From an uncultured bacterium (lineage in GTDB: Bacteria > Patescibacteriota > Minisyncoccia > UBA6257 > 2-01-FULL-56-20): a DNA stretch of 64,000 bases. The DNA is taken from assembly GCA_963718575.1 (NCBI GenBank), contig OY970358.1:322172-386171 (forward strand), written 5' to 3'. Below are positions 261 through 55,920 of this stretch, piece by piece; position 1 is the stretch's first letter, and each line of letters starts with the position of its first letter. The translations under genes and the position numbers were made by a program. The notes beneath the pieces are model-generated. The model saw only the letters and a program-made list of their open reading frames with translations. It had not been told where the DNA came from and ran no database searches.

Positions 261-659
261 TCTTTGATTGTACCACGGGCATCATTTTGACTTATGGGAA
301 AAAGGATGATTATATGTGTTCAGATAGCGAAGCGGAAAGGAGGAAATAGATGCCGCTTCCACATTGCTCTCACAAGCGTGGTTCGACCAGTGAAAAACGC
401 GTGACGCTCTGCCCTGAATGCCGCCAACCCCAGATGACAGGACGCAACGGAAAATGTGGCGAGTGTGGAATATTGCTCGTCATACGCAACCCCGATCCCA
501 TTCAGCCACAGCAGATTCAATTGGCTTGGGATCTCGCCCTGGGATGGCCGCCAAGCGAAGGATGTTTCGCTTAGCCATTCCGCCCATAGCGCCCCGGATG
601 AACCATCCCGGCTCAGCGCTATTTTTTTATCCTGATGGTGTATACTGAATGGCAATCCT

Positions 660-1334
660 ATGAGGATCCTCGTGGTCGAAGACCAAAAAGAAACTGCGGC
701 GGTTTTAAAGCGCAAGCTCGAAGCCGAGTGTTATGCGGTGGACGTGGAGCACGACGGCGAACGCGGATTCTATAAAGCCCGCACGAACGATTACGATCTC
801 ATTTTGTTGGACAAAGGCCTGCCGGGAAAAGACGGTTATGAGATCTGTTCCGAACTTCGTGAATATAAAACGAACACGCCGATCATGATCCTGAGCGTCG
901 CGGCGGAGATCGAGGATAAGGTAAATCTTCTCAACTGCGGCGCGGACGATTATCTCACCAAGCCGTATTCGTTCAACGAGCTCTCGGCGCGCGTGAAGGC
1001 GTTGTTGCGCCGCCCGGCGCAGACCGAAGGGAAATCGCTCACGGTCGGCGATATGTCACTTGATCGCGAAACCTATTCTTTCACCTTTCATAACCATACG
1101 GGATATCTCACTCCGAAAGAATTCATGTTGCTTGAATATCTCATGAAGAACGCCGGCAAGGTCGTCTCGCGCGGAACATTGCTGGAACACGTCTGGGACG
1201 ACAGCGCCGACCAATTTTCAAAGAGCATCGAAACGCACATCATGAATCTCCGCAAAAAGATCGATCCGCGGGACAGGGACGCGTTCATCCGCGCCGTCCC
1301 CGGACGCGGCTATATCGTCGGCGGCGGCGCTTAA
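660..1334 (+). CDS. OmpR-family response regulator (receiver domain plus winged-helix DNA-binding domain)
   Basis: MRILVVEDQ...DLILLD (receiver domain with phospho-acceptor Asp). C-terminal trans_reg_C-like segment LTPKEFMLLEYLMKNAGKVVSRGTLLEHVWD...RGYIV. Confidence 0.9.
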   Translation: MRILVVEDQKETAAVLKRKLEAECYAVDVEHDGERGFYKARTNDYDLILLDKGLPGKDGYEICSELREYKTNTPIMILSVAAEIEDKVNLLNCGADDYLTKPYSFNELSARVKALLRRPAQTEGKSLTVGDMSLDRETYSFTFHNHTGYLTPKEFMLLEYLMKNAGKVVSRGTLLEHVWDDSADQFSKSIETHIMNLRKKIDPRDRDAFIRAVPGRGYIVGGGA

Positions 1335-1508
1335 CGGATATTTAATGTGAGCTGAGTATAATATGCGGGAAAGGTCGAAAAAATCCCACACAAATGATAT
1401 GAATACGTTATTGGAAAAGGTGCTTACCGAGACATCCGCGCGCGAGCCGGAAGAAGCGGAGACGCTCGCTATGGAGCAAGATGCGTTTGAGATCTGGGAT
1501 TGATCGCG

Positions 1509-2879
1509 ATGAACGAAGACCTCCTGAGAAGAAAACATATCCTCGAGATCCTTCTCATCGGATCGGTGGGAATGCTGGTAGTCCTCGACGCTTTTGTCCT
1601 TTTTCATTCCTTACAGGACGGCGCCGCGTATCCGGGCATCACGTTCGGGGTGTTCTCGATACTACCAGCATTCTTCATCATCCTGTACGTCCTCTCCCGC
1701 CGCGGATTCTCTGAATCGGTTTCCTATCTTTTGATATGGATCTATCTTGCAAGCGATAGTTATGTCGCATACCGGTGGGGTGTCAGAGTGCAGGTGGTGC
1801 TCATTGCATATGCGCTCATCATCGTCATGGCGACCATCCTTCGCGGGACGAAATTCGGATTTTTCATCACCGGTGCGATCGCCGCGTATATCACACCGCT
1901 ATGGTATCTCCAAATGCACGGCATCGTCCTCATGCCGACGGAACGCCCGAGCGGTGACGATGCCGTCGTTCTCTCGGTGCTCTATTTCCTCATCATGATC
2001 GTCGCATGGCTTTACGATCGCGAGATCCAGCAATCACTGCGCCGGGCAAAAGACTCCGAGGCTGCGCTCAAAGAAGAGCGCAATTCGCTGGAAATAAAAG
2101 TCACGGAACGCACTGACGAATTGCGACGGACCCAGCTGGAAAAAGTGCAACAATTGAACCGTCTCGCCGAACTCGGACAGCTTTCATCCGGACTCTTCCA
2201 TGACCTGCTCAACCTCCTCAACGCGCTTTCGCTCCGTTCGGAAGATGTCGGGGATCCGTCCCTTACAAGCGCATTCAACACCGCGAGGCAGATCGAAAAT
2301 TTCATGAAGGCGGTCCGGAAGCAGATCGGCGGGGTGAACACAAGCGAACTATTTTCTCTTATCGAAGGCATCGATCATGTCGTCCAGCTCGTCAATTATC
2401 AGGCCAATAAGGGACTTGTCCGCATCGATTTCCGTCACGAACCGGATGCGGACATCCGATACGCCGGCGTCCCGTTCAAATTTCAGGAAATCGTGATCAA
2501 TCTGCTCTTGAACGCCATCGAATCGTATGAAAATCTGCCGCGCAACGATACCCGCGCGCGGACCATCGGGGTGACGATCGGGGAACGGTCCGGGCTCGTG
2601 ACATTCTGCGTCCGGGATAACGGATGCGGCATGACGCCCGCGGTCCGCGCGCGGGTATTTGAACCGTTCTTCACCACAAAGGACGCATCAAAAGGGATCG
2701 GGATAGGCCTTGCAACGATAAAGAAAATAATCGAAGAGGATTTTTCCGGCACGATCGCAGCAGAAAGCGAGCCGGGACGAGGATCCGTATTCACTGTCAC
2801 ATTTCCCATACATCATGAAGGATCATCAGAGAACGATCGACCGCGCGCTCACGCGCATCAGGGGCCAACAATCCCCTGA
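1509..2879 (+). CDS. Membrane sensor histidine kinase
   Basis: About 170 aa of N-terminal TM helices and a coiled-coil linker. H-box LSSGLFHDLLNLLN. HATPase_c motifs NLLLNAIES, RDNGCGM and GIGIGL. Lies immediately downstream of the response regulator. ATG at 1509 is preferred over the TTG at 1500 used in the ORF track. Confidence 0.85.
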   Translation: MNEDLLRRKHILEILLIGSVGMLVVLDAFVLFHSLQDGAAYPGITFGVFSILPAFFIILYVLSRRGFSESVSYLLIWIYLASDSYVAYRWGVRVQVVLIAYALIIVMATILRGTKFGFFITGAIAAYITPLWYLQMHGIVLMPTERPSGDDAVVLSVLYFLIMIVAWLYDREIQQSLRRAKDSEAALKEERNSLEIKVTERTDELRRTQLEKVQQLNRLAELGQLSSGLFHDLLNLLNALSLRSEDVGDPSLTSAFNTARQIENFMKAVRKQIGGVNTSELFSLIEGIDHVVQLVNYQANKGLVRIDFRHEPDADIRYAGVPFKFQEIVINLLLNAIESYENLPRNDTRARTIGVTIGERSGLVTFCVRDNGCGMTPAVRARVFEPFFTTKDASKGIGIGLATIKKIIEEDFSGTIAAESEPGRGSVFTVTFPIHHEGSSENDRPRAHAHQGPTIP

Positions 2880-4818
2880 CGGAAGCTTCATAAGCCTCTC
2901 GGGTTTTTCTCCCGATGATTTTTCCGATGCGATTCCCCGCCGGACGACATTCTTTACCGCAACCATCCTGGCGTGTCTGCACACTATCAGAAAACAAACC
3001 CCCGAGATCCATAACCGGGCGGCGGAATTCTTGCGGAAGGAAAAGAGCGAGCGATGCTCTTTCAATTATTGGGCGCGGCATGAATACGGACAAACCAACC
3101 CTCCTCATCCACCCTATCCGGACGATCTCGATGATACATTTGCCGCACTGATAGCGCTCGCAGGACATGATCGAAAGAGCATTGATGCCCGCTCGCTCGC
3201 CGCGGTGGCGAGACTGCTGACCGCCAGTGAAATTCACGCGGGCGGCCCGTATCGAACCTGGCTTGTGCCGAACAATGCCCCGGGGGCATGGCAGGATATC
3301 GACCTCGTGGTCAATTCCACGATCGGGTATTTTCTCTCGCTTATGGAAGTACATCTCCCGCGCCTGGAATATTTTATAAACGACGCGGTGAATAAAAATG
3401 AGCTCGCCTCCCCCTACTATCCCGGGATATTCCATGTTGGTTATTTTCTCTCACGATTTTATGAGAGCGTGAGCAGCAATGCGAAAAATGGTTGTGCCGA
3501 TGCCCGGATGAAATTGGCGGATATCGTCATCGGCCGCCTATACAAAACCGACGGCAGAACCATCACAACACTCGAACAATCAATGGCCATTTCATCGCTC
3601 ATCGCCCTTGGATGCGCAGAGCGGGACGTCGCCCCGGCGGCCAATCTGCTCGTGGAGCGCATAGAGCACGAAGGGTTCCGGCCTTACGCTTTCTGCATTG
3701 ATCCCGCACGTGAGGGCAGGCGATGCTACGCCGGCGCGTCCGCGCTGACCGCCGCTTTTTCCGCCGAAGCGCTCACGCGCCGTGCCGCTTTTCGCGATGC
3801 GGCGACGCCAGCGTGTGCGCCGCCGCCCGACGATCACATTCATGGCCTCGCCCGCACGGCATGCAGGGAGCTGAGCCACGACCTGCAGGGCATGGCCCTC
3901 GCAGAAATAGAAAAGGTTTCCGACGAGAAGATCACGACCCTCGCCTATGACTTCCGAGAGGTACTCTCTAAAAGCGGGATTATTATTCCGCTCGAGATCA
4001 CCGAACAACTTTCGCTCGCAAATCTTTATGGCTGGATGGCATACACGATCTACGATGACACCCTCGACGGCGAGTGCGATCGCGCGCTGATCCCCTGCGC
4101 GAACTTCTTCCTTAGGATGCTCACGGAACTATATCTTTCGCTCGAGCCGCAGATCCCCGGCGCGAAATGCCTTTTTTTAAAAACTACAAATCAAATTGAC
4201 GCCGCCGCCGTGTGGGAGCAAGCTCATTGCCGCATCGATCCGGAGCCGGGCGGCCTTCTCCCGTCGCCATTGCCATCGTTCGGCGATCATCAAACTCTTG
4301 CCGACCGGAGCATCGGACACGCGATGGGACCGCTCGCGGAAATGCTCTTTGCCGGATTTACCACGGACTCCGAAGAGTATCGAAATGTCGAATGCTTTTT
4401 CCGACACTATCTTATTGTCCGTCAGCTCCACGACGATGCACATGACTGGGCGGAAGACCTTCTCCATGGCCGCATAAATAGCGCGGGAACCATCGTTATG
4501 TATAAATTTCAAAAGAAATATCCTGACAGGGCGGAGGCTAAACCGATCCCCGTGATACTTCCCGAGCTGAAGGGAGTATTCTGGCAGGAAGTCATCGATG
4601 AGGTCGTAGGCCTTATACTCTCGCACGCTGCCGCCGCGAGGAACTTCAGAAAAGCGTCCGCTATGTTAAGCGATAGCGACTTCATGGAACATACGCTCCG
4701 AAAGCTCGAATCAGGCGCCATACGGGCGCTCAAAGAGCGAAACGATGCGCTTGTTTTTCTTAAGGATTATGGCAGTTCCCGGCCACCTGGCGTGACACCA
4801 GGAAAACCATTAAGCTAA
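2815..4818 (+). CDS. Two-domain terpene-synthase-like protein: an N-terminal class II cyclase-like alpha/alpha toroid and a C-terminal class I prenyl-synthase-like domain with two DDxxD motifs
   Basis: QW-like QQSPDGSF and a DxDDTA-type motif (PDDLDDTFAALIA) in the N-terminal half. IYDDTLDGE and about 130 aa later LHDDAHDWAED in the C-terminal half, spaced like FARM/SARM. The start overlaps the kinase gene by about 65 nt. Confidence 0.55.
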   Translation: MKDHQRTIDRALTRIRGQQSPDGSFISLSGFSPDDFSDAIPRRTTFFTATILACLHTIRKQTPEIHNRAAEFLRKEKSERCSFNYWARHEYGQTNPPHPPYPDDLDDTFAALIALAGHDRKSIDARSLAAVARLLTASEIHAGGPYRTWLVPNNAPGAWQDIDLVVNSTIGYFLSLMEVHLPRLEYFINDAVNKNELASPYYPGIFHVGYFLSRFYESVSSNAKNGCADARMKLADIVIGRLYKTDGRTITTLEQSMAISSLIALGCAERDVAPAANLLVERIEHEGFRPYAFCIDPAREGRRCYAGASALTAAFSAEALTRRAAFRDAATPACAPPPDDHIHGLARTACRELSHDLQGMALAEIEKVSDEKITTLAYDFREVLSKSGIIIPLEITEQLSLANLYGWMAYTIYDDTLDGECDRALIPCANFFLRMLTELYLSLEPQIPGAKCLFLKTTNQIDAAAVWEQAHCRIDPEPGGLLPSPLPSFGDHQTLADRSIGHAMGPLAEMLFAGFTTDSEEYRNVECFFRHYLIVRQLHDDAHDWAEDLLHGRINSAGTIVMYKFQKKYPDRAEAKPIPVILPELKGVFWQEVIDEVVGLILSHAAAARNFRKASAMLSDSDFMEHTLRKLESGAIRALKERNDALVFLKDYGSSRPPGVTPGKPLS

Positions 4819-4834
4819 AGGGAGGTCATTTCAA

Positions 4835-5185
4835 ATGACGGAAGGGGGGTGGAATATGGTCATCGAAGGCTGCGAAGAAAAAGCGTCGACCTTCACGTCG
4901 GAAGAAGATCTGCACGGAAAGATCGAGATCATCCAGGCAGAGCTCGAGCGTATGACGAAAGAAAAGAAGCCCGGCAAAGCAGGGGCTCAGGCATGGGTGA
5001 ACGAGGCTGATCATAAGATCAATAAAGCTTTCAATCTCCTTAAGCTCAAAGGGCAATATCCTGAGGAAGAATATCCCCGGTTGAAAGAGGTCTTCGCACA
5101 ACTCGAGGCGGTCGCCAAGAAGGCCGACGAAGACCGATTCCGCTATGGGACAAATATGAGACTTCCCGAATTCACCGTCGGCTGA
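4835..5185 (+). CDS. Hypothetical protein (116 aa, charged, predicted helical)
   Basis: ORF with a good RBS (AGGGAGG) about 8 nt upstream. No recognisable motifs. Confidence 0.5.
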   Translation: MTEGGWNMVIEGCEEKASTFTSEEDLHGKIEIIQAELERMTKEKKPGKAGAQAWVNEADHKINKAFNLLKLKGQYPEEEYPRLKEVFAQLEAVAKKADEDRFRYGTNMRLPEFTVG

Positions 5186-5247
5186 GTGCGCTTCACACTC
5201 ACAGCGCCTGAACACTCAGACAGGCGCTGTTATTTTTTGAAAAATAT

Positions 5248-6117
5248 CTATCCCTTAACACAAACAAGGCACAAGAACAGCGGAATCTCCTTTCGTGCCA
5301 GGTCCTCCGCAATAGCCCGCGGGCCGTCCTGGCTCTTTTTATGCGAGTTCCATTCTTCTATAAGGGATACCGCGAACCCCGCTTTATTGAGCGCTTTAAA
5401 ATAATACTGGAGCGGCCGATGGAACGACGTCGTGTACTGGCCCGGCTTGTCGCCCGGATGCATTTGGATCGGCACTTTCAGCTCGGAAAGATAGCGATCA
5501 ACGCGACGATACTGCACCTTCTCTCTTTCGTCCCACCCCCAGGCACTCGCCTTCGGCACGCGAAACGCGGGATGGTTGAGCACGATATATACCTTGCCGT
5601 CTTTTTTAAGGACACGCGCGCATTCGCGCACGACCGCCCCGACGTTCTCCATATTTTGCAACGCGAGCACGATCGCGGCCTTATCCACGCTTGCATTTTT
5701 TATGAACGGCAGCGCATCACCGGCTGCAACGTGAAATAGCGCTGATGGCACATTTTTTTGCGCGATCCCGATGAGCGCCTTGGAGGCATCAACGCCCGTC
5801 ACGATGGCACCGCGTGCGGCGAACTCGCGCGTGAAGAATCCCGGCCCGCAGGCGAGGTCAAGCACGGCATCGCCGCGACGAACATCCATTAACCGCAAAA
5901 GGTTCGGCAGGATCAGCTCCTTCTGATACGTCCCCTCTCCATTAAGCAACTTGTCGTACCATTCCGCGACGTTCTCCCAGGAAGTGCTCCTGGGCGCGGG
6001 CTTCGCCTTCGATCTCGGCTTTGGTCTTTGCGTCGGCATCCATCCATTATGCCATGATTCCGCAAAAGTGAAATAAACCGGCCCGTCGACCGGTATATAT
6101 ACGTAACAATGGCTCAA
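5248..6117 (-). CDS. Class I SAM-dependent methyltransferase
   Basis: Motif I VLDLACGPGFFTREFA followed by D-ASK. Rossmann-like methyltransferase fold pattern. Confidence 0.8.
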   Translation of the reverse strand: MSHCYVYIPVDGPVYFTFAESWHNGWMPTQRPKPRSKAKPAPRSTSWENVAEWYDKLLNGEGTYQKELILPNLLRLMDVRRGDAVLDLACGPGFFTREFAARGAIVTGVDASKALIGIAQKNVPSALFHVAAGDALPFIKNASVDKAAIVLALQNMENVGAVVRECARVLKKDGKVYIVLNHPAFRVPKASAWGWDEREKVQYRRVDRYLSELKVPIQMHPGDKPGQYTTSFHRPLQYYFKALNKAGFAVSLIEEWNSHKKSQDGPRAIAEDLARKEIPLFLCLVCVKG

Positions 6118-13441: not shown

Positions 13442-13711
13442 ATGCTCTCATTCTATCAAGAAAACTGGGCGAAAGGAACTGTGCGTTTCTCTTTAAGATA
13501 GTTTTAATTGGTCGTATGTTATGGTGGCAAGGCCAACGGCCGAAAGGGCCGGTGGTGAAACGGTATCATGGCGAGGTCGCCACTTGGCAGTTTGGGGTTC
13601 GACTCCACACCAGTCGACGTTGGCGCGAACCCGAACTTGACGCTCATAGAAATCCGAGTACTGTGGACATCAAGGTGGCGACCTGGCGTGGTGCCGTAAG
13701 CACCATCAAAC

Positions 13712-13745
13712 AAAAAACCGCTCTCTCGAGCGGTTTTTTGTTTTT
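13712..13745. terminator. Rho-independent terminator downstream of ybeY, bidirectional by sequence
   Basis: aaaaaaccgctc-tctc-gagcggttttttgttttt. Confidence 0.8.
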
Positions 13746-13747
13746 AC

Positions 13748-14122
13748 TTATTTCAACTTCTTCAAAATCTTCGCCTCCAACCCTTCCATGTTCGCGATGT
13801 CCGCCTTCTTTATATGATCATATCCAAGCAGATGCAACACGCCGTGCAAGAGCAGCGCTTTCGCCCGCTCCGGTGACTTCTTTAAAATATCGCGGTTCAA
13901 ATAGATCTCGCCGAGGTAACGCTTCTTTGTTTCCGGATGGGGAAAATGCGCGGGTTCGGGAAACGAGAGCACATTCGGCTCCGTCTTCTTCTTTATAAAT
14001 CGTGCCTTAAGCTTGGTGATGCTCTTATTGTCGAGCAAAATGATATCCATCGCTGCATCGCGGACACCAAGCGCCTTCAACATCTTCTGCGCCAACCGCG
14101 CAAGCTTAGCTTCGTTCCACAT
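13748..14122 (-). CDS. ybeY: rRNA maturation endoribonuclease YbeY
   Basis: HGVLHLLGYDH metal-binding motif. The internal Met start (MWNEAKL...) is chosen to avoid a 50-nt overlap with the upstream gene. Confidence 0.85.
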   Translation of the reverse strand: MWNEAKLARLAQKMLKALGVRDAAMDIILLDNKSITKLKARFIKKKTEPNVLSFPEPAHFPHPETKKRYLGEIYLNRDILKKSPERAKALLLHGVLHLLGYDHIKKADIANMEGLEAKILKKLK

Positions 14123-35624: not shown

Positions 35625-36161
35625 TCATTGTTGGAAGAACAAGACCCCCTGCCCCGTCACCTTTTCGTTTGTTCCGTCGGCTGATACATCGAACGACGAA
35701 AGCGAGAGGAGAAATTCCGCCGACTTGGCATCCATATCATCCAGAAACGAAGCAATGTCGCCGGGCGTGCCTTCGGCGCTGAAAGAAAACTGCGCGCTTC
35801 CCGGCGTGACCCCCGTTGGCGGCGTGATAGAACCCTGGAACGCCGCATCGGCCGTGACGTTATACTTTTCCCCCAACTGGGTCAGCCATTGCGTAAAAGT
35901 TACAAGCCCATACTGGCTGGGAAGAAGCTGATCGATCGCCGCTTGATATTGCATCGCCTGCGATGCATCTGCCCCAAGCTGGGCAAGGTTGGCCACGGTA
36001 TTGGTATCCTGCTGTATTGTCATACGATCATTCGCGATCACCAAAGCCTGGGCGGAGATGCTGCTGGAAAAGAAAAACAAGGCGCCTCCCGCGATGATGA
36101 TGCTTGCAACGATGATTCCCCCGCTTATCAATAATTGCCTCGTGAATCGATCCTTGACCAT
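35625..36161 (-). CDS. Membrane-anchored protein, possibly PilO-like
   Basis: N-terminal TM helix and Gln-rich coiled segment. Pilus-locus context. Confidence 0.4.
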   Translation of the reverse strand: MVKDRFTRQLLISGGIIVASIIIAGGALFFFSSSISAQALVIANDRMTIQQDTNTVANLAQLGADASQAMQYQAAIDQLLPSQYGLVTFTQWLTQLGEKYNVTADAAFQGSITPPTGVTPGSAQFSFSAEGTPGDIASFLDDMDAKSAEFLLSLSSFDVSADGTNEKVTGQGVLFFQQ

Positions 36162-36258
36162 TGTCCTTCTATTATAGCTAAAATGGGGAATTAAATCACG
36201 ATGAAATCATATTTCTTGATATTCAAAAAAACTGTTAGGCTCAAAAAAAACAATTCCA

Positions 36259-37380
36259 ATGAACGAATCCCATTACTATCACGCGGTCGCAGTCGCAACC
36301 CATGGCGGTTATGCCACAATGAAAAAATATCGCGCGGCGGGAGGCGACGGCTGGGAAGCGGCATATTACGCACTTCAAAAAGACATTGAAATGGCGAACA
36401 ACGCATTACTGATCGGAGAAACCATCATCGCCCCGCCGCCCGATCCCCAAAGGGCATATGAGGAGATGGAGCGCCTCGGCGTGCGCCTGGTGCTCAGCTC
36501 GCAAAAAAAATTCCCTGAGGCGCTCCGCAATATTCCCCATCCTCCGTTCGGCATCTATCTCCGCGGCGAAGAACTTATAGACACATCTATATCCGGCACG
36601 CCTATACGAACCGCACACCCGCCGACGATTGCCGTCGTCGGAACCCGGCGCGCGAGCGCGGATGGCAAGAAGACTGCGCGCTCTTTCGCACGCGAGCTTG
36701 CCGCCGCAGGATGCACGATCGCGAGCGGCCTCGCTTTTGGCATAGACGCGGCGGCGCATGAGGGCGCGCTTGACGCTGCTGCCGATGGCGGACGCGGCAC
36801 GACCATCGCGGTCCTCGCCGGAGGCCTCGACGCCGTCTACCCGCACTCGCATCGCGCGCTCGCAGAAAAGATCCTCGCGAGCGGAGGCACGCTCATCTCC
36901 GAATATCCGCCGGGCGAGACACCGTTCGCCTACCGCTTCATCGAGCGCAACCGGATTATGAGCGGCCTCTCGCGCGGCGTGCTCATCGTGGAAGCGCCCG
37001 AGTCTTCCGGCGCGCTCGCCACCGCGCGTTATGCCGTGGAACAGAACCGCGAGGTATTCGTCGTGCCCGGCGCGGTGAGCGCGAACAACTTCAAAGGCTC
37101 GCACACGCTCATTCGTCAAGGGGCGGAGCTCGTCACATCGCCTGGCGATATTCTTGAAGCGTATGAGCTAGACAAAAAGGCAGCCGTGGCAGCCGCGAAC
37201 GCCGCGGCGACACCCGAACAAATCCTTATCCTAAAAGCGCTCAGAGAGATATCGTCACCTGCCGATGTTGACAAATTAGCAGGAATCACTAGACTTGAAC
37301 CCCGCGTAGTCAATCAGATGCTAAGCCTCCTTTTAATAAGAGGAATCATCAAGGAATCGGAAACTGGGTATACAATATAA
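36259..37380 (+). CDS. dprA: DNA processing protein DprA (Smf)
   Basis: TIAVVGTRRASADGKKTARSFARELAAAGCTIASGLAFGIDAAAHEGAL. Confidence 0.9.
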   Translation: MNESHYYHAVAVATHGGYATMKKYRAAGGDGWEAAYYALQKDIEMANNALLIGETIIAPPPDPQRAYEEMERLGVRLVLSSQKKFPEALRNIPHPPFGIYLRGEELIDTSISGTPIRTAHPPTIAVVGTRRASADGKKTARSFARELAAAGCTIASGLAFGIDAAAHEGALDAAADGGRGTTIAVLAGGLDAVYPHSHRALAEKILASGGTLISEYPPGETPFAYRFIERNRIMSGLSRGVLIVEAPESSGALATARYAVEQNREVFVVPGAVSANNFKGSHTLIRQGAELVTSPGDILEAYELDKKAAVAAANAAATPEQILILKALREISSPADVDKLAGITRLEPRVVNQMLSLLLIRGIIKESETGYTI

Positions 37381-37398
37381 ATAATTCACTCTCTATAT

Positions 37399-39660
37399 AT
37401 GGATCTCATCATCGTCGAATCCCCCACCAAGGCAAAGACCATCGGCAAATTTGTCGGCAAAGGGTTTGCCGTCGAGTCGTCATACGGCCACATCCGCGAT
37501 CTTCCCAAGAGCAAGATCGGTATTGACGTCGCCCACGATTTTGCGCCGAGCTACATGATTCCCAAGAAGGCGGAGCCTGTCGTCGCCAATTTAAAGGCGC
37601 TCGCAAAGAAGGCGGACCGCGTCATTCTCGCGACTGACGAGGACCGCGAAGGAGAAGCGATCGCGTGGCACCTCGTGAACGCGCTCGGGCTTGATGAAAA
37701 AAAGACCGCACGACCGTACGAGCGCATCGCATTCCATGAGATCACAAAGAACGCGATCATGGAGGCGCTCGAACATCCGCGCGCGCTCGACGTCAATCTC
37801 GTGGATGCCCAGCAGGCCCGCCGGGTGCTCGACCGCCTCGTCGGCTACGAGCTCTCGCCATTCTTATGGCGCAAGATCCGGTATGGACTTTCAGCGGGGC
37901 GCGTACAAAGCGTGGCGGTGCGGCTCGTCGTAGAACGCGAGCGGCTGATCCAGGCATTTAATAAGGAGGAATACTGGACGATCGAGGCGTCATTTTTGCC
38001 GCCTAAAGGAAAGACCGCATTCCCTGCAGTGCTCAATTCTATCAATGGCAAAGCGGTCGGAAAGATGGGCATCAAAAATGCCGCCGGAGCGGTCTCTATT
38101 ATAGAGGGGCTAAAAAGCGCCGACTATCACGTTTCGGCTATCGCAGTGAAGGAAGTCCGCCGGAATCCGTCGGCGCCATTCACGACCTCCACGCTCCAGC
38201 AGGAAGCGGCGCGCAAGCTCGGCTTCAGTGCAAAACAGACGATGATGATTGCCCAGCATCTCTATGAGAACGGGCACATCACCTATATGAGGACCGACAG
38301 CACAAACCTTGCGGCATCCGCGCTCGCAACGGCACATGCCGTGATCGGGAAAGAATTCGGAAAAGAATATCAACTCCCCGCTCCGCGCATCTATTCCACC
38401 AAGAGCAAGGGCGCGCAGGAGGCGCACGAGGCGATCCGCCCCGCGAACATCGAGATGATCCCCGGCGTCGGCTCCGGCTTGAAAGATCGCGGCGAGATCC
38501 GTTTGTATGATCTTATCTGGAAACGCACGATCGCATCACAGATGAAGGAGGCCGTACTCGAACAAACGTCCGTGGACGTCGAAGCGAACACGCCGCGTCG
38601 GGAGATATTCCGCGCGAACGGCCAGACCGTCGTCTTCGACGGATTCATCCGTGTCTACACCGAAGGAAAAGATGACGATGTAAGCGATGAAATCGAGGGC
38701 GGCTTGCCAAAACTCGAGAAAGAAATGGCACTCACGCTCGCCGACCTGAAGAGCGAGGCCGACGACGACGGCAAAGAAAACCCCGCGGGCGTTCAGCACT
38801 TCACCGAACCTCCGGCGCGCTATACCGACGCGACGCTCGTAAAAGCGCTCGAGGCGGAAGGGGTGGGCCGTCCGTCGACGTATGCACCAACCCTCTCGAC
38901 CATCCAGGAGCGCGGGTACGTGGAAAAAGTTGATAAAAAATACGCACCAACGGAGATCGGGACGCTCGTGAACGACCTCCTCGTGGAAAATTTTCCGGAG
39001 ATCGTGGACATTAAATTCACTTCGCACATCGAAGAAGAGTTCGATGACATCGCCGACGGCAAAATAAAATGGACGGAGGTGTGCCGTGAATTCTACGGCC
39101 CGTTCAAAAAAAATCTTGCAGAGAAGGAGGCAAGCGTGGAAAAACAGGTGGAAGTGTCCACTACGCCGTGCCCGCACTGCGGAAAGCCGATGCTCATCAA
39201 ATTCGGCCGCATGGGAAAATTCCTTGCCTGCCCGGAACCGGGCGTGAAGGTCACGCTCCCGATGCCGGAAGAAGCGGCGCAGATCAAAGCGCTCGAGGAG
39301 AAAACGAAGGACGAACGCTGCCCGATCTGCGGAAAACCGATGAAGGTGACGCGCGGCCGCTTCGGCTTCTTCCTCGGTTGCACCGATTATCCGAAGTGCA
39401 AGGGCATCATGAAGATCTGGAACAAGACCGGATTCAAATGCCCGAACTGCCTTGCATCGCCTGATCGCCGCGACAAGCCCGGTGACATCGTGGAGAAGAA
39501 ATCGCGCGGGCGCGGAAAACCGTTCTTCGCCTGCACGCGCTATCCCGACTGCACGTTCGTGATGAATAAAAAACCGGAGTCGGAAGAAGAACTCCGGGCG
39601 GCGCTCAATTATTGGATCGAAAATCCGCCAAAACCAAAAGCGGCAAAGAAGAAAGAATAG
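37399..39660 (+). CDS. topA: DNA topoisomerase I with C-terminal Zn-ribbon repeats
   Basis: TOPRIM MDLIIVESPTKAKTI. Active-site Tyr region. Three or more CxxC...CxxC zinc ribbons. Confidence 0.95.
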   Translation: MDLIIVESPTKAKTIGKFVGKGFAVESSYGHIRDLPKSKIGIDVAHDFAPSYMIPKKAEPVVANLKALAKKADRVILATDEDREGEAIAWHLVNALGLDEKKTARPYERIAFHEITKNAIMEALEHPRALDVNLVDAQQARRVLDRLVGYELSPFLWRKIRYGLSAGRVQSVAVRLVVERERLIQAFNKEEYWTIEASFLPPKGKTAFPAVLNSINGKAVGKMGIKNAAGAVSIIEGLKSADYHVSAIAVKEVRRNPSAPFTTSTLQQEAARKLGFSAKQTMMIAQHLYENGHITYMRTDSTNLAASALATAHAVIGKEFGKEYQLPAPRIYSTKSKGAQEAHEAIRPANIEMIPGVGSGLKDRGEIRLYDLIWKRTIASQMKEAVLEQTSVDVEANTPRREIFRANGQTVVFDGFIRVYTEGKDDDVSDEIEGGLPKLEKEMALTLADLKSEADDDGKENPAGVQHFTEPPARYTDATLVKALEAEGVGRPSTYAPTLSTIQERGYVEKVDKKYAPTEIGTLVNDLLVENFPEIVDIKFTSHIEEEFDDIADGKIKWTEVCREFYGPFKKNLAEKEASVEKQVEVSTTPCPHCGKPMLIKFGRMGKFLACPEPGVKVTLPMPEEAAQIKALEEKTKDERCPICGKPMKVTRGRFGFFLGCTDYPKCKGIMKIWNKTGFKCPNCLASPDRRDKPGDIVEKKSRGRGKPFFACTRYPDCTFVMNKKPESEEELRAALNYWIENPPKPKAAKKKE

Positions 39661-39706
39661 CCCGGAGCTGGCGATGCTATACTAAAGGGACATCCATAGC
39701 AACGTC

Positions 39707-40930
39707 ATGAAAAAAGGATTTACGCTCGTTGAGATTCTTATCGCCGTTGCGATCATCTCGATCCTCGGGGTGGTCGTCATCCTCACCATCAATCCCGCCG
39801 AATTGCTCCGGCAGGGACGTGATGTCACGCGCATATCCGACATGAGCACACTCAACAAGGCGATATCGCTCTATTACCAGGATGCCATGAGTAATCCGAA
39901 CACTCTTTTCATGGGGACGTCGTCCGTGATCTACGTCTCGGTTCCCGATCCCTCTGCGACCTCCACCGCCGGAGATCAATGCCAGGGGCTCGGACTCCCC
40001 TCCCTTGCCTCCTCCACTCTTTCCTACCATTGCGCTGAAACTTCCACCTATACGAGGACCGATGGCACCGGATGGATCCCTATCAATTTCAACTCTTATC
40101 TATCAGGACAGGGCGGATCGGTGATCTCAAAAATTCCCGTCGATCCAACGAACGCCACCTCCACGAATTTCTACTATACCTATGAAACCGACGGACTAGC
40201 AGGATACAAAGTCACCTCGTTCCTTGAATCCCAAAAATATGCATCGCAGATGGCAAACGACAGCGGGGACGATCCGGAGCTTTATGAAAAAGGCACCAAC
40301 CTCCTACTCGCATCAGGGCGAGGCCTCGTCGCTTATTGGCCCGTGGACGAGGGAACGGGAAGCTCGACCATCGATTATTCCGGCAACAATGCCACGGGGA
40401 CATGGCACGGCACCGCGGCAGGGACCAGCGGCTACTACTCTGCCGGCAAGGTGTGGTCATGGGCAGGGTTTTTCAATGGGAGCAACGATTATGCCCTCAC
40501 TGCCAGCAATATAAATGTCGGGAGTTCGTTTTCCATTGTGGCGTGGGTCAACCCGAGCGCCAGCACGACCGTCGATGCCCGTATCGTTGAGAGCAATTAC
40601 TCAACGGGGTTCTATCTTGGGAGCGGCGCGCTTGCCACTGAATATCAAATCATTGTGGATGGAACTGGTTGTAATGGCGGGATACTGACCACGGGGACAT
40701 GGCAGCAAGTGGTGGGAGTCTATAATGGTTCGGTTGAATCCCTCTATGTGAACGGCGTCTTGGCTAATAGCTGCAGCGCTCCTACGCCGACGAGCACGCT
40801 CCCCGTCTATATCGGGATCGAACACGGCGGCGTGGGTGGCCCCTGGAAGGGTTCCATTAGCGATGTTCGAATCTACAACACCGCCCTCCCGGCGACGGAG
40901 ATCCAGGAAATGTATAACGCCACAAAATGA
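39707..40930 (+). CDS. Type IV pilin fused to a C-terminal LamG/concanavalin-like lectin domain
   Basis: MKKGFTLVEILIAVAIISILGVVVILTINPAELLRQGRDVTRISD, then ...YWPVDEGTGSSTIDYSGNNATGT...FFNGSNDYAL...LYVNGVLANS...GSISDVRIYNTALPATEIQEMY. Confidence 0.75.
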   Translation: MKKGFTLVEILIAVAIISILGVVVILTINPAELLRQGRDVTRISDMSTLNKAISLYYQDAMSNPNTLFMGTSSVIYVSVPDPSATSTAGDQCQGLGLPSLASSTLSYHCAETSTYTRTDGTGWIPINFNSYLSGQGGSVISKIPVDPTNATSTNFYYTYETDGLAGYKVTSFLESQKYASQMANDSGDDPELYEKGTNLLLASGRGLVAYWPVDEGTGSSTIDYSGNNATGTWHGTAAGTSGYYSAGKVWSWAGFFNGSNDYALTASNINVGSSFSIVAWVNPSASTTVDARIVESNYSTGFYLGSGALATEYQIIVDGTGCNGGILTTGTWQQVVGVYNGSVESLYVNGVLANSCSAPTPTSTLPVYIGIEHGGVGGPWKGSISDVRIYNTALPATEIQEMYNATK

Positions 40931-40940
40931 TCCTCTCTTG

Positions 40941-42698
40941 ATGACCATTAAAGAGATCATTAAAAAAAGACCGGACGGTTTGATCGCGCGCGCATACGCA
41001 TTCGCGGAAAAGGCGCATGCCGGCCAAAAACGGAAAAGCGGCGAACCATATTTTAACCATCCGCTCGCCACGGGGGAAGTCCTCCAATCCTGGCACTTGG
41101 ACGACGCGACCATCGCCGCAGGCATCCTGCACGATACCGTGGAAGACACGGGCGTGCCGCTCGATACCATAGAAAAAGAATTTGGTCCGGAGGTGGCGTT
41201 CCTTGTGGACGGAGTCACCAAACTCGGACACATCAAGTATCGCGAAGCGCCCGGCGCGACCGACGGCAAGACCTTCTCTAAAAAAGGCACAGTAAAACAA
41301 ACCGCCGAAGAGAATAAAGCGGAAAACCTCCGCAAGATGGTGCTCGCGCTCAGCCAGGACCTGCGCGTGGTATTCATCAAGCTCGCCGACCGTCTGCACA
41401 ATATGCAGACGCTCTCTTCTTTGCCGCCCGCAAAACAAAAACGGATCGCGCTCGAGACGGACGAGATCTATGCCTCGCTCGCCTATCGTCTTGGCATGCA
41501 CAACGTGAGCGGCGAACTCCAGGACCTCGCATTCCCCTATCTCCATCCGCGCGAGTACGAATGGCTGCTCTCCATCGCAAAGGAACGATTTGCCGAACGC
41601 GAAAAATATCTGGAAAAGATAAAACCGCAGGTAAAAAAAGTGCTCGAAGACCATGACATCAAGCCGCTCGACATCGAGATCCGCGCAAAGCGCTACAGCA
41701 GCCTGTATAAAAAATTATTGAAGCGCGATATGGACATCGAGCGCGTGCACGATCTCGTGGCGATGCGCATCATCGTCGCCACGATGCCCGAGTGCTACGC
41801 CGCGCTCGGCGTGATCCACGAGGCGTGGCCGCCGCTTCCGCGCCGCATCAAGGATTACATCGCCATGCCGAAGCCGAACGCGTACCGCAGTCTGCACACG
41901 ACCGTCATCGGCCCGGACGGCAAGCGCGTGGAAATCCAGATCCGCACGCAGGAGATGCACGATGAGAACGAATACGGAGTTGCGGCCCACTGGCTCTATA
42001 AACAGAAACAGGGCGGCGTGAATGTTTCCGGAAAGAAATTGGCGCAGGAGATCGCATGGGTGCAACAGCTCAAGAACTGGCAGGAACATTTTGGGGGCAA
42101 CGCCGAAGACCCGGAGGAATTCGTCCGTGCAATGAAAATTGATTTCTTCACCGACCGGATCTTTGCCGTCACGCCGCGCGGCGACGTGATCGACCTCCCC
42201 GTCGGTTCCACCCCGATCGATTTCGCCTATCATGTGCATTCCGAGGTGGGCAACTCGGCGACGGGGGCGAAAGTGAACGGGGTCATGAGCACGCTCGATC
42301 ACGTTTTAAAATCCGGCGACGTCGTCGAAATCATCACGCAAAAAGGAAAGAAGCCGTCCGAGGACTGGCTTCGCTTTGCAAAGACGACGATCGCCCGCGA
42401 TCATATCCGCATGGCCCTCCGGAAGAAAGGAGTGTTCGCCCGCGCGCTCAGTCTGCCCACGCACGCAGAACTCCGGCTGACCGTCGAGGACCGCGTCGGC
42501 CTTATCAAGGACATCTCCGGTTCGATCGCGGAATCACATATCGGCATCATGAGCTTCCACACCGAACCGTCTCCGGGGAAACGATTTCACCTCAATAAAG
42601 TGGACATCAACTCGACCGACAAAAAGAAGATCGATAAATTGATCGAAAAGTTGCGGAAAGTGAAAGGAGTGAAAGACCTTGGCTATCGGTTGATCTAG
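40941..42698 (+). CDS. rel: (p)ppGpp synthetase/hydrolase, RelA/SpoT (RSH) family
   Basis: HD domain HDTVEDT. Synthetase domain. TGS and ACT domains. ATG at 40941 is chosen so as not to overlap the pilin gene. Confidence 0.9.
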   Translation: MTIKEIIKKRPDGLIARAYAFAEKAHAGQKRKSGEPYFNHPLATGEVLQSWHLDDATIAAGILHDTVEDTGVPLDTIEKEFGPEVAFLVDGVTKLGHIKYREAPGATDGKTFSKKGTVKQTAEENKAENLRKMVLALSQDLRVVFIKLADRLHNMQTLSSLPPAKQKRIALETDEIYASLAYRLGMHNVSGELQDLAFPYLHPREYEWLLSIAKERFAEREKYLEKIKPQVKKVLEDHDIKPLDIEIRAKRYSSLYKKLLKRDMDIERVHDLVAMRIIVATMPECYAALGVIHEAWPPLPRRIKDYIAMPKPNAYRSLHTTVIGPDGKRVEIQIRTQEMHDENEYGVAAHWLYKQKQGGVNVSGKKLAQEIAWVQQLKNWQEHFGGNAEDPEEFVRAMKIDFFTDRIFAVTPRGDVIDLPVGSTPIDFAYHVHSEVGNSATGAKVNGVMSTLDHVLKSGDVVEIITQKGKKPSEDWLRFAKTTIARDHIRMALRKKGVFARALSLPTHAELRLTVEDRVGLIKDISGSIAESHIGIMSFHTEPSPGKRFHLNKVDINSTDKKKIDKLIEKLRKVKGVKDLGYRLI

Positions 42699-51835: not shown

Positions 51836-51922
51836 GGAGACGTGGCCGAGTGGCTGAAGGCAGCATCCTGCTAAGATGTTAGGGGAGAAATCCCCTCGAA
51901 GGTTCGAATCCTTCCGTCTCCG
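51836..51922 (+). tRNA. tRNA-Ser (anticodon GCT)
   Basis: GGAGACGTGGCCGAGTGGCTGAAGGCAGCATCCTGCTAAGATGTTAGGGGAGAAATCCCCTCGAAGGTTCGAATCCTTCCGTCTCCG. Long variable arm. Confidence 0.85.
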
Positions 51923-52038
51923 CAGACAAGGCGATTGTATCGTAGCGATCGTCTTATATAGGTTTTTAGTGCGACCGACATATATGAGGGCACCAGGACG
52001 CCCGAACTTTTTGGTGTTAAAATGAAACTGCTACGCAT

Positions 52039-53073
52039 ATGAAATTAGATGATGTATACGCTGCAGCAGACAAATTGAGGCGATCTGCTGCAGCCATGCA
52101 AAAAGAAGCGAAAGCAGTAAAAACTGCTTGCTTGGATATCAACACATCGTGGAGCCAGTCGGCTCTCACTCGGCACGCAAAATTCTATTTCCGCAACTAT
52201 GAAGAGCCTCCCGCAACTAGTCGGTTCAATATTGAGTGGGGCCTAATTCATGGAATTCCCGACGGCTGGGAAGAAAGATCCAATGAAGAAGTTTGCCAAG
52301 AAATTGAAAAAAGGAGCGGAGCATCTCTCGATGATTTTAAAGAAAAAGTTACGAAGCTCGAAGACGAATTCGAGGCTTTAAAGCGAGACACTTCTCTTGT
52401 GCTGATAGAGGAAGGAATCGCGGACGTTTCGGAGATTGAGGGTTTTAAGTTTGAGAACGCAACGGATTATTTTAATACGTTAAATCCGACTACTTATATG
52501 ACGCGTGACAGTGCGGCCATCACCTCTGGAAGGTATATCGCACCCCACATTTATTTCGAGGCCGTCGCGATGTCAGCTCTAGGGATCGAAGGGCAGCTTG
52601 ATGAATTCATATATAAGATTAAAAAGCTCGGCGTAGGGACTGGCACTCCTCAAAAGAGCAACGATTTCTGGAATACGATCCACCCAGCGATAAGATCAGT
52701 TTCGGAAAAACAATTTAAGAATGGACATTATCTCGATGCCGTTCGTTCTGCGTTCATCGAATTCAATGATAAAGTAAAGCAAAAATACAAAAAAGACGCG
52801 GGTACAGAGGAAGATGGATTCAATTTAATGAAATTAGCTTTCGGCGACTTTTCAGCATCTAATTCAAGCTTCAACGGAACCGTGAAATACAGCCTGGCAG
52901 ATCTATCAACGGATTCAGGAAAGAATTTCCAAAAAGGTTTTTCGCTCATGTCGGCTGGAGCAGTTCTCGGCTTAAGAAATCCACGAGCCCATGCGAACGT
53001 TATGGACGAGAAGGACGAAGCTATTCACTTAATTTTTTTGGCAAGCTGGCTTATGAGAACTGCGTTTCCATAA
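52039..53073 (+). CDS. Two-domain protein: a novel N-terminal region plus a C-terminal HEPN-like domain (Rx4H: LRNPRAH), resembling the TIGR02391 'Abi C-terminal' family
   Basis: C-terminus ...FWNTIHP...NGHYLDAVRSAFIEFNDKV...FSLMSAGAVLGLRNPRAHANVMDEKDEAIHLIFLASWLMR. AT-rich. Confidence 0.55.
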   Translation: MKLDDVYAAADKLRRSAAAMQKEAKAVKTACLDINTSWSQSALTRHAKFYFRNYEEPPATSRFNIEWGLIHGIPDGWEERSNEEVCQEIEKRSGASLDDFKEKVTKLEDEFEALKRDTSLVLIEEGIADVSEIEGFKFENATDYFNTLNPTTYMTRDSAAITSGRYIAPHIYFEAVAMSALGIEGQLDEFIYKIKKLGVGTGTPQKSNDFWNTIHPAIRSVSEKQFKNGHYLDAVRSAFIEFNDKVKQKYKKDAGTEEDGFNLMKLAFGDFSASNSSFNGTVKYSLADLSTDSGKNFQKGFSLMSAGAVLGLRNPRAHANVMDEKDEAIHLIFLASWLMRTAFP

Positions 53074-53179
53074 TTGATATCTGATAACCCTCAGGATTGG
53101 TTTTTTGATGCTCTCTGGCGTAAGATGAAGTTATTAAAAAATCATTAAAAAACAGGGGTATTCTAGCCTCCGTTCAACC

Positions 53180-55917: not shown

Positions 55918-55920
55918 TGT

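Follow-up and report, generated by a model that had tools for sequence, protein, structure and literature searches.

A predicted terpene cyclase–prenyltransferase fusion encoded with a tryptophan-bearing peptide and a two-component system in Patescibacteria

Organization of the locus

The DNA analyzed here (hereafter the window) is a stretch of 64,000 nucleotides from the genome of an uncultured bacterium of the Patescibacteriota (assembly GCA_963718575.1, contig OY970358.1, positions 322,172 to 386,171 of the forward strand). Near its start lies a module of four genes transcribed in the same direction, the last of which encodes a two-domain protein, hereafter referred to as the fusion, with a class II terpene cyclase-like N-terminal half and a C-terminal half resembling a trans-isoprenyl diphosphate synthase (trans-IDS). 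The fusion is preceded by genes for a response regulator, a small peptide and a histidine kinase:

660..1334, + strand: OmpR/PhoB-type response regulator (receiver and winged-helix Trans_reg_C domains, by Pfam), first gene of the module
1399..1503, + strand: putative precursor peptide gene, 34 aa, MNTLLEKVLTETSAREPEEAETLAMEQDAFEIWD, with a homologous small open reading frame (ORF) upstream of the kinase across loci
1509..2879, + strand: membrane histidine kinase with a HATPase_c domain (by Pfam and hydropathy)
2815..4818, + strand: fusion ORF, ATG start, 667 aa

The response regulator matches the Pfam families Response_reg (E=2e-25) and Trans_reg_C (E=1.3e-23), and its best NCBIfam matches are of the RppA/CopR/PhoB type, all of them below cut-offs. 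The kinase ORF opens at a TTG codon at position 1500, its likely start being the ATG at 1509, 5 nt past the stop of the peptide gene (1503). Pfam searches with the kinase returned HATPase_c (E=8e-22) and HATPase_c_5 (E=2.8e-5); a candidate phospho-acceptor is present at H234 (FHDLLN), and the kinase core is nearest to those of VirA, AtoS and ZraS. Hydropathy analysis predicts four transmembrane (TM) helices in the window protein and four to six in most homologs, with no extracytoplasmic domain.

With its end at 2879, the kinase ORF extends through a C-terminal tail (HHEGSSENDRPRAHAHQGPTIP) 65 nt into the fusion gene, which begins at 2815. A preliminary description of the window had recorded this overlap, which is real (the adjacency of the two genes holds across the family), and had overlooked the conserved 34-aa Trp-bearing peptide gene (1399..1503) between regulator and kinase. 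An overlap of about 65 nt recurs in the closest relatives (the equivalents in loci L007-L013, with the kinase ending at 6065 in three of them and the fusion starting at 6001), and in remoter loci the kinase and fusion genes abut or overlap by a few bases only.

Conservation of the module across Patescibacteria

The four genes travel together. In six loci encoding fusion homologs of 38-57% identity, the only constant neighbors are the response regulator, a called gene of 34-53 aa and the histidine kinase, all located upstream and on the same strand. The other neighbors vary between loci, methyltransferase, GH18 and HhH-GPD genes being syntenic in close relatives only. A larger set of 80 loci, fetched out of 230 species-representative genomes and searched in six frames with the window kinase, the window regulator and a hidden Markov model (HMM) of the peptide, spans the Paceibacterota, Saccharimonadales, Levyi-, Davies-, Shapiro-, Doudna-, Moranii- and Colwellbacteria, and CPR2. 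All 76 testable loci, Microgenomates among them, contain the peptide ORF, detected by the HMM in 74 and by inspection in the other two (L052 and L058). In nearly every locus that includes upstream sequence, the gene immediately preceding the fusion, in the same orientation, is that of the kinase. Among the 74 loci with a detectable regulator, 64 have its gene directly upstream in the same orientation and the other ten have it elsewhere nearby. The usual order is OmpR-type regulator, ORF of about 36 aa, multi-TM histidine kinase and fusion. Across homologs, the identity of the kinase sensor region (0.34) is close to that of the kinase core (0.40), with no sign of hyper-divergence.

Two kinds of departure from this arrangement were observed. 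The Saccharimonadales locus L076 is rearranged, with the genes still linked: peptide-like and kinase-like ORFs stand beside the fusion on the opposite strand (3697..4837, - strand). The kinase gene is split into two adjacent ORF segments in L008, L026 and L058, which suggests frameshifts, due either to sequencing errors or to pseudogenization of the sensor in some genomes.

The fusion family is large. At least 497 homologs, nearly all of them full length and labeled "hypothetical", were recovered from 5.8 billion proteins, and all of those listed derive from Patescibacteria-type sources. An exhaustive HMMER scan of 1.84 billion cluster representatives, counted at 50% identity, gave 1,638 clusters with a threshold of E<=1e-3, or 907 with one of E<=1e-30, and a scan with one genome per GTDB species located the fusion in 230 genomes. 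With these numbers, the earlier suggestion that such an architecture is rare in bacteria does not hold. A tblastn search against plasmids gave no match. The family appears to be confined to Patescibacteria. Several cassette-bearing contigs, some of them 1.3-1.4 Mb long, are titled 'uncultured Gammaproteobacteria', 'Methylomirabilota', 'Dormiibacterota' or 'Vitreimonas sp.' (L022, L027, L030, L032, L042, L043, L045, L046, L051, L062, L064, L069, L081, L082 and L083). These titles probably reflect mis-binning of metagenome-assembled genomes or default mislabeling; otherwise, the family extends beyond the candidate phyla radiation (CPR).

Two domains with conserved Asp-rich motifs

As a single sequence, the fusion returned nothing significant against Pfam, NCBIfam or PDB sequences, so its fold assignment rests on AlphaFold models, Foldseek and the comparison of a family profile with PDB sequences. 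The family alignment comprises 49 sequences, down to 36% identity. An AlphaFold2 model of the full-length protein built from this alignment has a mean pLDDT of 91 and consists of two all-helical domains joined by a low-confidence linker (aa 331-337); its pTM of 0.57 leaves the relative orientation of the two domains uncertain. When modeled alone, the C-terminal half reached a pLDDT of 94.2 and a pTM of 0.90. Structure prediction, proposed in the preliminary description as a check, was hence informative for both halves (pLDDT 91 for the full protein and 94 for the C-terminal domain, with Foldseek support for each), while the Pfam check gave a mixed outcome: no family matched the fusion itself and polyprenyl_synt did not match the C-terminal half of any member, and sporadic matches to SQHop_cyclase_C and a single match to Terpene_syn_C_2 above cut-off were obtained among its homologs.

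The motifs first noticed by eye in the fusion are QQSPDGSF (aa 18-25, in which Q19, G23 and F25 make up a QW-like QxxxGxF pattern), PDDLDDTFAAL (aa 102-112), IYDDTLDGE (aa 412-420) and LHDDAHDWAED (aa 538-548). Residues Y101, P102, D104, D106, D107, T108, D414, D418, Q537, D540, A542, D544 and W545 are invariant in all 49 aligned sequences, and D103, D541, H543 and D548 are conserved in at least 90% of them. Invariant or near-invariant blocks comprise YPDDLDDT, GGPYRTW (aa 143-149), SPYYP (aa 199-203), GWxAYxIYDxxLD and RQLHDDAHDWxxD. Conservation of this kind in the alignment places the motifs far above chance.

The N-terminal half: a predicted monodomain class II cyclase

Three features of the N-terminal half are relevant to its predicted activity:

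2815..3804, + strand: monodomain class II terpene cyclase (TC-beta, alpha/alpha barrel), fusion aa 1-330, by Foldseek and family profile
3124..3138, + strand: class II DxDD(T) general-acid motif D104-L-D106-D107-T108, with D106 as the predicted proton donor
3409..3423, + strand: S199-P-Y201-Y202-P203 motif, with Y202 as the predicted hydrogen-bond partner of the general acid

A Foldseek search of the PDB with the first ~330 residues placed the drimenol synthase AsDMS at the top (9m7e_B, E=2.4e-9, rmsd 3.1 Å over 328 columns; also 9mlo_A) and the merosterolic acid synthase MstE third (6sbb, E=2.4e-6), the latter at an identity of only 13-16%. Further matches included a small "SHC" (8paj), squalene-hopene cyclase, SsDMS and oxidosqualene cyclase. 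The family profile likewise identified the AsDMS beta domain as the closest solved relative (E=1.5e-14), and sporadic Pfam matches in homologs fell on SQHop_cyclase_C, Prenyltrans and TED_complement. In the model, only about 330 aa precede the linker, pointing to a lone beta domain without a gamma domain; both papers on the structure of AsDMS describe its cyclase in the same terms.

The profile alignment extends to the catalytic residues. The DLDDT of the family aligns exactly on the DLDTT of AsDMS, D331 and D333 of which correspond to D104 and D106 of the fusion; both are essential in AsDMS, and D333 is its general acid (PMC12365925). The deposited D333N chain has Asn in the D106 column, on which ground D106 is taken to correspond to the AsDMS general acid. 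The SPYYP motif, invariant at S199 and Y202 and at least 90% conserved at Y201 and P203, aligns on R425-Y426-Y427 of AsDMS, so that Y201 and Y202 occupy the places of Y426 and Y427. The substitutions Y426A and Y427F abolish AsDMS activity, and Y427 is hydrogen-bonded to D333 (PMC12365925). F46, Y85 and W86 of the fusion align with F281, F318 and Y319 of AsDMS, the first two of which have pi-cation roles, the third being essential (PMC12365925). Nineteen aromatic positions are conserved in the N-terminal half, as expected of a pocket that stabilizes carbocations.

Two features set the family apart from AsDMS. The invariant GGPYRTW loop of the fusion is missing from AsDMS, and the residues that bind the farnesyl diphosphate (FPP) diphosphate group in AsDMS (R378, R380, R425 and R513; PMC12365925) are not conserved in the fusion family, where they align with W, D, P200 and A298, respectively. 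Such an Arg cluster is not required for MstE-type substrates.

Profile and model thus describe the N-terminal half as a predicted monodomain class II cyclase related to AsDMS, with a functional-looking putative DxDD(T) site. The class II cyclase-like character ascribed to this half at the outset on the basis of its DxDDT(A) and QW-like signatures is upheld by the AsDMS profile match and by the invariance of the motif. A LanC-like or TED-like identity was considered for this domain and rejected: the TED_complement and Prenyltrans matches are weak and at the level of the toroid, whereas the AsDMS match covers the catalytic residues.

The C-terminal half: a trans-IDS-like domain

The second half of the fusion carries two Asp-rich motifs resembling the first and second Asp-rich motifs (FARM and SARM) of trans-IDS:

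3826..4815, + strand: trans-IDS-like all-alpha domain, fusion aa 338-667, the predicted prenyltransferase (P) domain
4051..4068, + strand: first Asp-rich (FARM-like) motif Y413-D414-D415-T-L-D418, predicted Mg2+/prenyl-diphosphate site
4423..4458, + strand: second Asp-rich (SARM-like) motif Q537-L-H-D540-D541-A-H-D544-W-A-E-D548, including the upstream Gln

The best 50 PDB matches of this domain in Foldseek are all trans-IDS, at TM-scores of 0.6-0.7, and include hexaprenyl (HexPPS), heptaprenyl, octaprenyl (OPPS) and solanesyl (SPS) diphosphate synthases as well as geranylgeranyl diphosphate (GGPP) and FPP synthases (GGPPS and FPPS); no class I cyclase is found among those 50. The matches to HexPPS, OPPS, SPS and GGPPS score 0.65-0.70. 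The preliminary description read this half as a class I prenyl synthase-like domain with two DDxxD motifs about 130 aa apart. The spacing is correct (126 residues from D414 to D540), and the trans-IDS fold and the conservation of both motifs agree with that reading; the first motif, however, is strictly D414-x-x-x-D418, that is DxxxD and not DDxxD, since D415 is variable. Set against the class I motif (N,D)Dxx(S,T)xxxE, the second motif shows an NSE-like 1-5-9 spacing, yet with Asp in place of Ser/Thr at position 5 and of Glu at position 9. With the Asp-rich motifs conserved among homologs, and the N-terminal half distinct from LanC-like and unrelated toroid families, neither of the two findings that would have spoken against the original domain assignment was obtained.

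A Gln at the place of Q537 is found in canonical trans-IDS as well, so this residue, which is consistent with recognition of a peptide Trp, is not discriminating. In trans-IDS-like peptide prenyltransferases, the conserved Gln upstream of the SARM has been put forward as the Trp-recognition element (PMC13290415).

Several lines of evidence bear on whether this domain elongates prenyl chains. No Lys is conserved in aa 336-667, where the conserved basic residues are R434, R498, R530, R536, R609 and R642 only, and no trans-IDS motif for binding isopentenyl diphosphate (IPP) is recognizable in the alignment of the C-terminal half. Chain-elongating trans-IDS bind IPP through conserved Lys/Arg motifs (GGKRxR, RRG after the FARM, KT and GK), and chain elongation by this domain is unlikely because those Lys motifs are missing. 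The Pfam family polyprenyl_synt (PF00348) matches the C-terminal half of none of the 49 members; its single weak match (E=0.051) falls in the N-terminal half of P0053. Terpene_syn_C_2 passes its cut-off across both motifs in one of 49 homologs (25.4 versus 23.7 bits), with six of 49 giving weak matches. The modeled fold and the alignment therefore suggest a member of the trans-IDS structural branch that shows the features neither of a chain-elongating synthase nor of a canonical class I cyclase.

A small peptide with a near-terminal Trp

The 34-aa window peptide consists of a conserved leader (aa 1-15) and a variable acidic core, with Trp33 one residue from the C-terminus. Comparison of the 73 distinct peptides found across loci, which have a median length of 36 aa, reveals the same design. 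The leader follows the N-terminal consensus MKeLlkKiLTDKsAR, and mean pairwise identity drops from 0.39 in the leader to 0.12 in the core, which is hypervariable. A conserved leader combined with a hypervariable core is typical of precursors of RiPPs, peptides made on the ribosome and modified post-translationally. All 73 peptides have a Trp 1-6 residues before the C-terminus, a placement shared by 11.4% of the 2,994 small ORFs that served as background in these loci; it is the sole Trp in 70 peptides and is preceded by Pro in 46. The peptides match no Pfam or NCBIfam family.

Beyond the leader and the near-terminal Trp, which are the only features common to all peptides, the cores differ. At least two classes can be distinguished: one with an acidic core (Paceibacterota-type, as in the window), and one with a basic N-terminus and a hydrophobic stretch of 14-18 residues ending in PW. 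The acidic, non-hydrophobic class accounts for 19 of the 73 peptides, the window's included, and 17 of the 73 have a hydrophobic core that is signal peptide-like or TM-like. Members of the hydrophobic class resemble a stand-alone signal peptide or TM helix (L003, L005, L020, L028, L050 and L084 are examples across loci). The two classes may differ in fate, one being secreted and the other retained in the membrane.

A proposed peptide maturase in a signaling cassette

Two folds, invariant catalytic motifs, a fixed four-gene module and a peptide with leader, core and near-terminal Trp recur throughout the family. Because a conserved Trp-peptide gene accompanies the fusion in the module, we regard the latter as a likely RiPP maturase and not as a producer of free terpenes. 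In the reading we favor, and hold to be probable, the fusion is a bifunctional enzyme that prenylates the Trp of the ribosomal peptide whose gene lies 1.3 kb upstream within the operon and then cyclizes the prenyl group on it. A broader model, which we put forward tentatively and at somewhat under even odds, is that the cassette specifies a terpenoid-peptide pheromone, widespread and vertically maintained in Patescibacteria, that is sensed by the dedicated intramembrane histidine kinase and the OmpR-type regulator.

From these features we infer a substrate, a reaction order, a prenyl chain length and a signaling role, as follows. The fusion would bind the 34-aa precursor, with its conserved leader, variable core and Trp33. 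The C-terminal domain would bind an all-trans prenyl diphosphate (probably C15-C20; FPP or GGPP), with Mg2+ held at D414/D418 and D540/D541/D544/D548, ionize this donor and alkylate the indole of Trp33, as in ComQ, PalQ and the P domain of ChrPC. The N-terminal domain would then protonate the terminal double bond of the peptide-bound prenyl group through D106, helped by D104 and Y202, and the chain would be cyclized into a polycyclic terpene, as by the C domains of NctPC and ChrPC and by MstE on a prenylated aromatic. Finally, the lipidated peptide would be processed and exported, sensed by the adjacent histidine kinase and relayed to the OmpR-type regulator, forming an autoinducer module like that of ComQXPA.

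The order of the two reactions proposed here follows from chemical reasoning: transfer before cyclization is favored because a bicyclized FPP would be a non-allylic diphosphate, which is not ionizable at a class I-type site. Cyclization after transfer also fits the loss of the diphosphate-binding Arg residues of AsDMS, since the substrate would by then have no diphosphate head group. As to sensing, the kinase combines 4-6 TM helices with a HATPase_c_5 signal and lacks an extracytoplasmic domain, which is the topology of peptide-sensing kinases.

Comparison with known systems

The closest counterparts are the PC-type maturases. NctPC and ChrPC combine a prenyltransferase fused to an MstE-like monodomain cyclase, transferring C10-C20 prenyl groups onto a peptide Trp and then cyclizing them, and the P domain of ChrPC is trans-IDS-like (PMC13290415). 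At the level of fold, and as these enzymes are described in a review, the likeness is close: a single chain comprises a peptide-Trp prenyltransferase and an MstE-like cyclase, and the substrate peptide is encoded alongside. The primary paper on ChrPC and NctPC is reportedly that of Hubrich et al. (Chem 2024, 10:3224). The precursor encoded here differs in being about 36 aa long with a new leader, LxKxLTDKxxR, and is not a proteusin, Nif11 or lasso precursor; the cassette also differs in always including a histidine kinase and a response regulator and in its Patescibacteria host range. The cyclase domain is N-terminal and the transferase C-terminal here, possibly unlike ChrPC, which is compared by description only.

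Gene content, on the other hand, recalls the ComQXPA quorum-sensing cassette and similar systems. In ComQ/ComX, PalQ/PalX and StheQ/StheX, a trans-IDS-like enzyme is paired with a peptide whose Trp is C-terminal or close to the C-terminus (PMC10853753; preprint 10.64898/2026.08.29.745113). ComQXPA of Bacillus shares with the module all four gene types, namely a trans-IDS-like enzyme with a conserved first Asp-rich motif, a precursor with Trp near its end, a multi-TM histidine kinase and a response regulator. ComQ, however, is without a cyclase domain, and in both ComQ and StheQ the second motif is degenerate, a pseudo-SARM (NDxxx) without metal binding (preprint 10.64898/2026.08.29.745113), whereas the fusion combines a cyclase with an invariant, full DDxxD(xxxD) second motif. 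ComA is of the NarL/LuxR type and the regulator here of the OmpR type, and the gene order is RR-X-HK-Q (regulator, peptide, kinase and enzyme) as opposed to Q-X-P-A. The likeness of the kinase and regulator to ComP and ComA is one of analogy and not of homology. In Paenibacillus alvei, the Pal cluster includes the kinase PalP, and the Trp of PalX is C-terminal (PMC10853753); in StheX of Sphaerobacter, the Trp second from the C-terminus is prenylated by StheQ. Both PalP-PalX-PalQ and StheQ/StheX thus resemble the module in placing a trans-IDS/terpene synthase-like enzyme beside a precursor with a conserved Trp in its terminal region, the Pal system also having a histidine kinase. They differ in their precursors (an NHLP leader of more than 70 aa in PalX, and 69 aa in StheX) and in having no cyclase domain, and the Pal cluster has no reported response regulator.

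The N-terminal domain shares with AsDMS (9m7e/9mlo) a lone beta domain, the DLD(T/D)T motif, a Tyr pair (RYYP/SPYYP) and aromatic pocket residues, but AsDMS is fused to a HAD phosphatase and not to a prenyl synthase fold, and it has the four diphosphate-binding Arg residues that are not conserved here. MstE is a stand-alone enzyme with a small-molecule substrate, unlike the fusion with its predicted peptide substrate. Plant and fungal class II/class I diterpene synthases and PvCPS resemble the fusion in having class II and class I-fold sites in one chain, with beta ahead of alpha. They have a beta-gamma didomain and a true class I or chain-elongating alpha domain, make free terpenes, and come without peptide, kinase or regulator. 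The analogy with fungal and plant bifunctional diterpene synthases drawn in the preliminary description is consequently set aside, given the lone beta domain and the trans-IDS identity of the best 50 matches of the C-terminal domain.

The best explanation, based on these analogies, is that the fusion is closest in mechanism to a PC-type RiPP maturase set in a ComQXPA-like cassette. The system is distinct from known ones in its Patescibacteria hosts, its new family of short precursors, its obligatory linkage to a histidine kinase and response regulator, its intact second motif and, possibly, its domain order. We found no report linking such a cassette to Patescibacteria in the literature searched, which was largely that outside subscription journals, and a prior description is possible.

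Weighing the evidence and the alternatives

Several observations weigh against the proposed maturase and its signaling role. Catalysis by the fusion is a prediction from folds, motifs and context. No link to ComQ was found at the sequence level: alignment of the family profile with an approximate B. subtilis ComQ sequence, a query that is itself only weakly recognized as a trans-IDS, gave a non-significant hhalign E-value of 0.3 over the FARM region only, which we do not read as evidence against a relationship. The second Asp-rich motif is fully intact, and such a motif is typical of chain-elongating synthases and class I cyclases. The kinase, with its VirA/AtoS-like core, and the OmpR-type regulator are generic, not relatives of ComP/ComA or AgrC/AgrA. 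The kinase sensor (0.34 versus 0.40 for the kinase core) is conserved to nearly the degree of the kinase core and shows no pherotype-like co-diversification with the variable core of the peptide; under the signaling model, it would probably read the conserved lipidated Trp instead of that variable core. The module includes no conserved protease or exporter. Lastly, the 17 of 73 peptides with hydrophobic cores could be membrane-resident regulators of the kinase and not substrates.

This last point is the starting point of the alternative that best survives, although we consider it unlikely. Here the small ORF would encode a modulator of the kinase, membrane-bound or cytoplasmic, and the fusion would be the regulated output, producing for example a cyclic terpenoid that adjusts the membrane of organisms unable to synthesize their own lipids, in a homeostatic loop like that of DesK/DesR. 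Small proteins that modulate kinases are well known, the kinase is of the intramembrane-sensing type without an extracellular domain, and the good conservation of its sensor throughout the phylum is what a sensor of some general membrane property would show; the 17 peptides with TM-like hydrophobic cores would also fit. The acidic, non-hydrophobic peptides (19 of 73, including that of the window), however, cannot be membrane modulators. The leader and near-terminal Trp common to all classes reproduce the substrate design of ComX, PalX and StheX, the combination of conserved leader and hypervariable core is that of RiPP precursors, and the C-terminal domain has no features of a free-isoprenoid synthase.

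An even less probable alternative is a bifunctional class II/class I synthase of free terpenes, in which the N-terminal domain would turn GGPP or FPP into a bicyclic diphosphate, to be ionized by the C-terminal domain for the remaining cyclization, in the manner of plant and fungal copalyl diphosphate synthase/kaurene synthase (CPS/KS) enzymes, the two-component system merely regulating expression. One chain does unite a DxDD class II domain with a class I-fold domain that has a DxxxD motif and a D540/D544/D548 triad of approximately NSE/DTE spacing, the beta-then-alpha order from N- to C-terminus is that of plant terpene synthases, and Terpene_syn_C_2 passes its cut-off in one homologue, with weak matches in six of 49. 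Against this stand the identity of the best 50 structural matches of the C-terminal domain, all of them trans-IDS and none a class I cyclase, the missing gamma domain and the non-conservation of the diphosphate-binding Arg residues of AsDMS; the co-occurrence, in 76 of 76 loci, with a leader/core peptide ending in Trp would also be left unexplained.

Least probable of all is a PvCPS-like assembly line, in which the C-terminal domain would elongate to FPP or GGPP and the N-terminal domain would cyclize the product to a drimenyl- or copalyl-type diphosphate for a membrane or envelope terpenoid: chain-elongating trans-IDS are the best structural matches of the C-terminal domain, both Asp-rich motifs are intact and AsDMS, the nearest solved relative of the N-terminal domain, cyclizes FPP itself, but the C-terminal half has no conserved Lys and no recognizable IPP-binding motif, polyprenyl_synt matches it in none of 49 members, the diphosphate-binding Arg residues of AsDMS are missing and the linkage to the peptide is unexplained.

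Each of these three alternatives leaves unaccounted for either the peptide with its invariant Trp or the missing IPP- and diphosphate-binding residues.

Implications for Patescibacteria

The CPR/Patescibacteria make up a large share of bacterial diversity, have tiny genomes and are mostly episymbionts, with almost no characterized signaling or specialized metabolism. A four-gene module likely matters for their lifestyle, because it has been retained in many major lineages despite extreme genome reduction. Should the proposed maturase and signaling cassette be borne out, it would provide a concrete handle on communication or host interaction in CPR bacteria, and would represent the first dedicated cell-cell (or symbiont-host) signaling system proposed for ultra-small episymbionts as well as the first cyclic terpene-modified peptide acting as ligand of a two-component system. 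It would also supply some 1,600 diverse, compact cyclase-prenyltransferases with natural peptide substrates for biocatalytic peptide lipidation. A beta-alpha architecture resembling that of terpene synthases, with both sites apparently active as judged from their motifs, is common in bacteria, which bears on the origin of these domain combinations.

Transcription signals and surroundings of the module

One further feature was noted within the module:

1357..1362, + strand: perfect TATAAT hexamer in the spacer between regulator and peptide genes, a possible -10 element for a peptide-kinase-maturase transcript (weak evidence)

This hexamer has no matching -35 element and was not called by a consensus promoter scan. 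Scanning of positions 300..5400 for promoters and terminators found no more sites than in shuffled controls, so that the operon is not defined by the scan. A 116-aa ORF immediately downstream of the fusion (4835..5185) was considered as a fifth gene of the module and rejected, having one weak homolog among 86 loci.

No prenyl-donor genes (trans-IDS, UppS and others) turned up when the 64-kb window was searched for their motifs, a result that says nothing about the whole genome. In two Paceibacterota-type contigs of 0.7-0.8 Mb from relatives of the window organism, cytochrome oxidase genes (COX1, COX3 and COX_ARM/COX2) lie a few kb upstream of the cassette (L001, 586..5300; L002, 1..2169). Aerobic respiratory genes of this kind are unusual for CPR bacteria. 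Locus L001 also encodes a UbiA-family prenyltransferase resembling heme O synthase; a heme O synthase would imply a supply of FPP.

Elsewhere in the window, a 160-aa ORF (13516..13998, + strand) overlaps a tRNA-Ala gene (13546..13618) and is probably no real gene. AT skew is strongly positive (0.12-0.22) along some 6 kb at positions 36001..42000, coinciding with a run of long ORFs on the + strand (36259..42698). The GC content of positions 52001..56000 is 0.41-0.43, versus 0.52-0.57 elsewhere in the window, and a tRNA-Ser gene (51836..51923) lies just before this low-GC stretch, which may be a horizontally acquired island.

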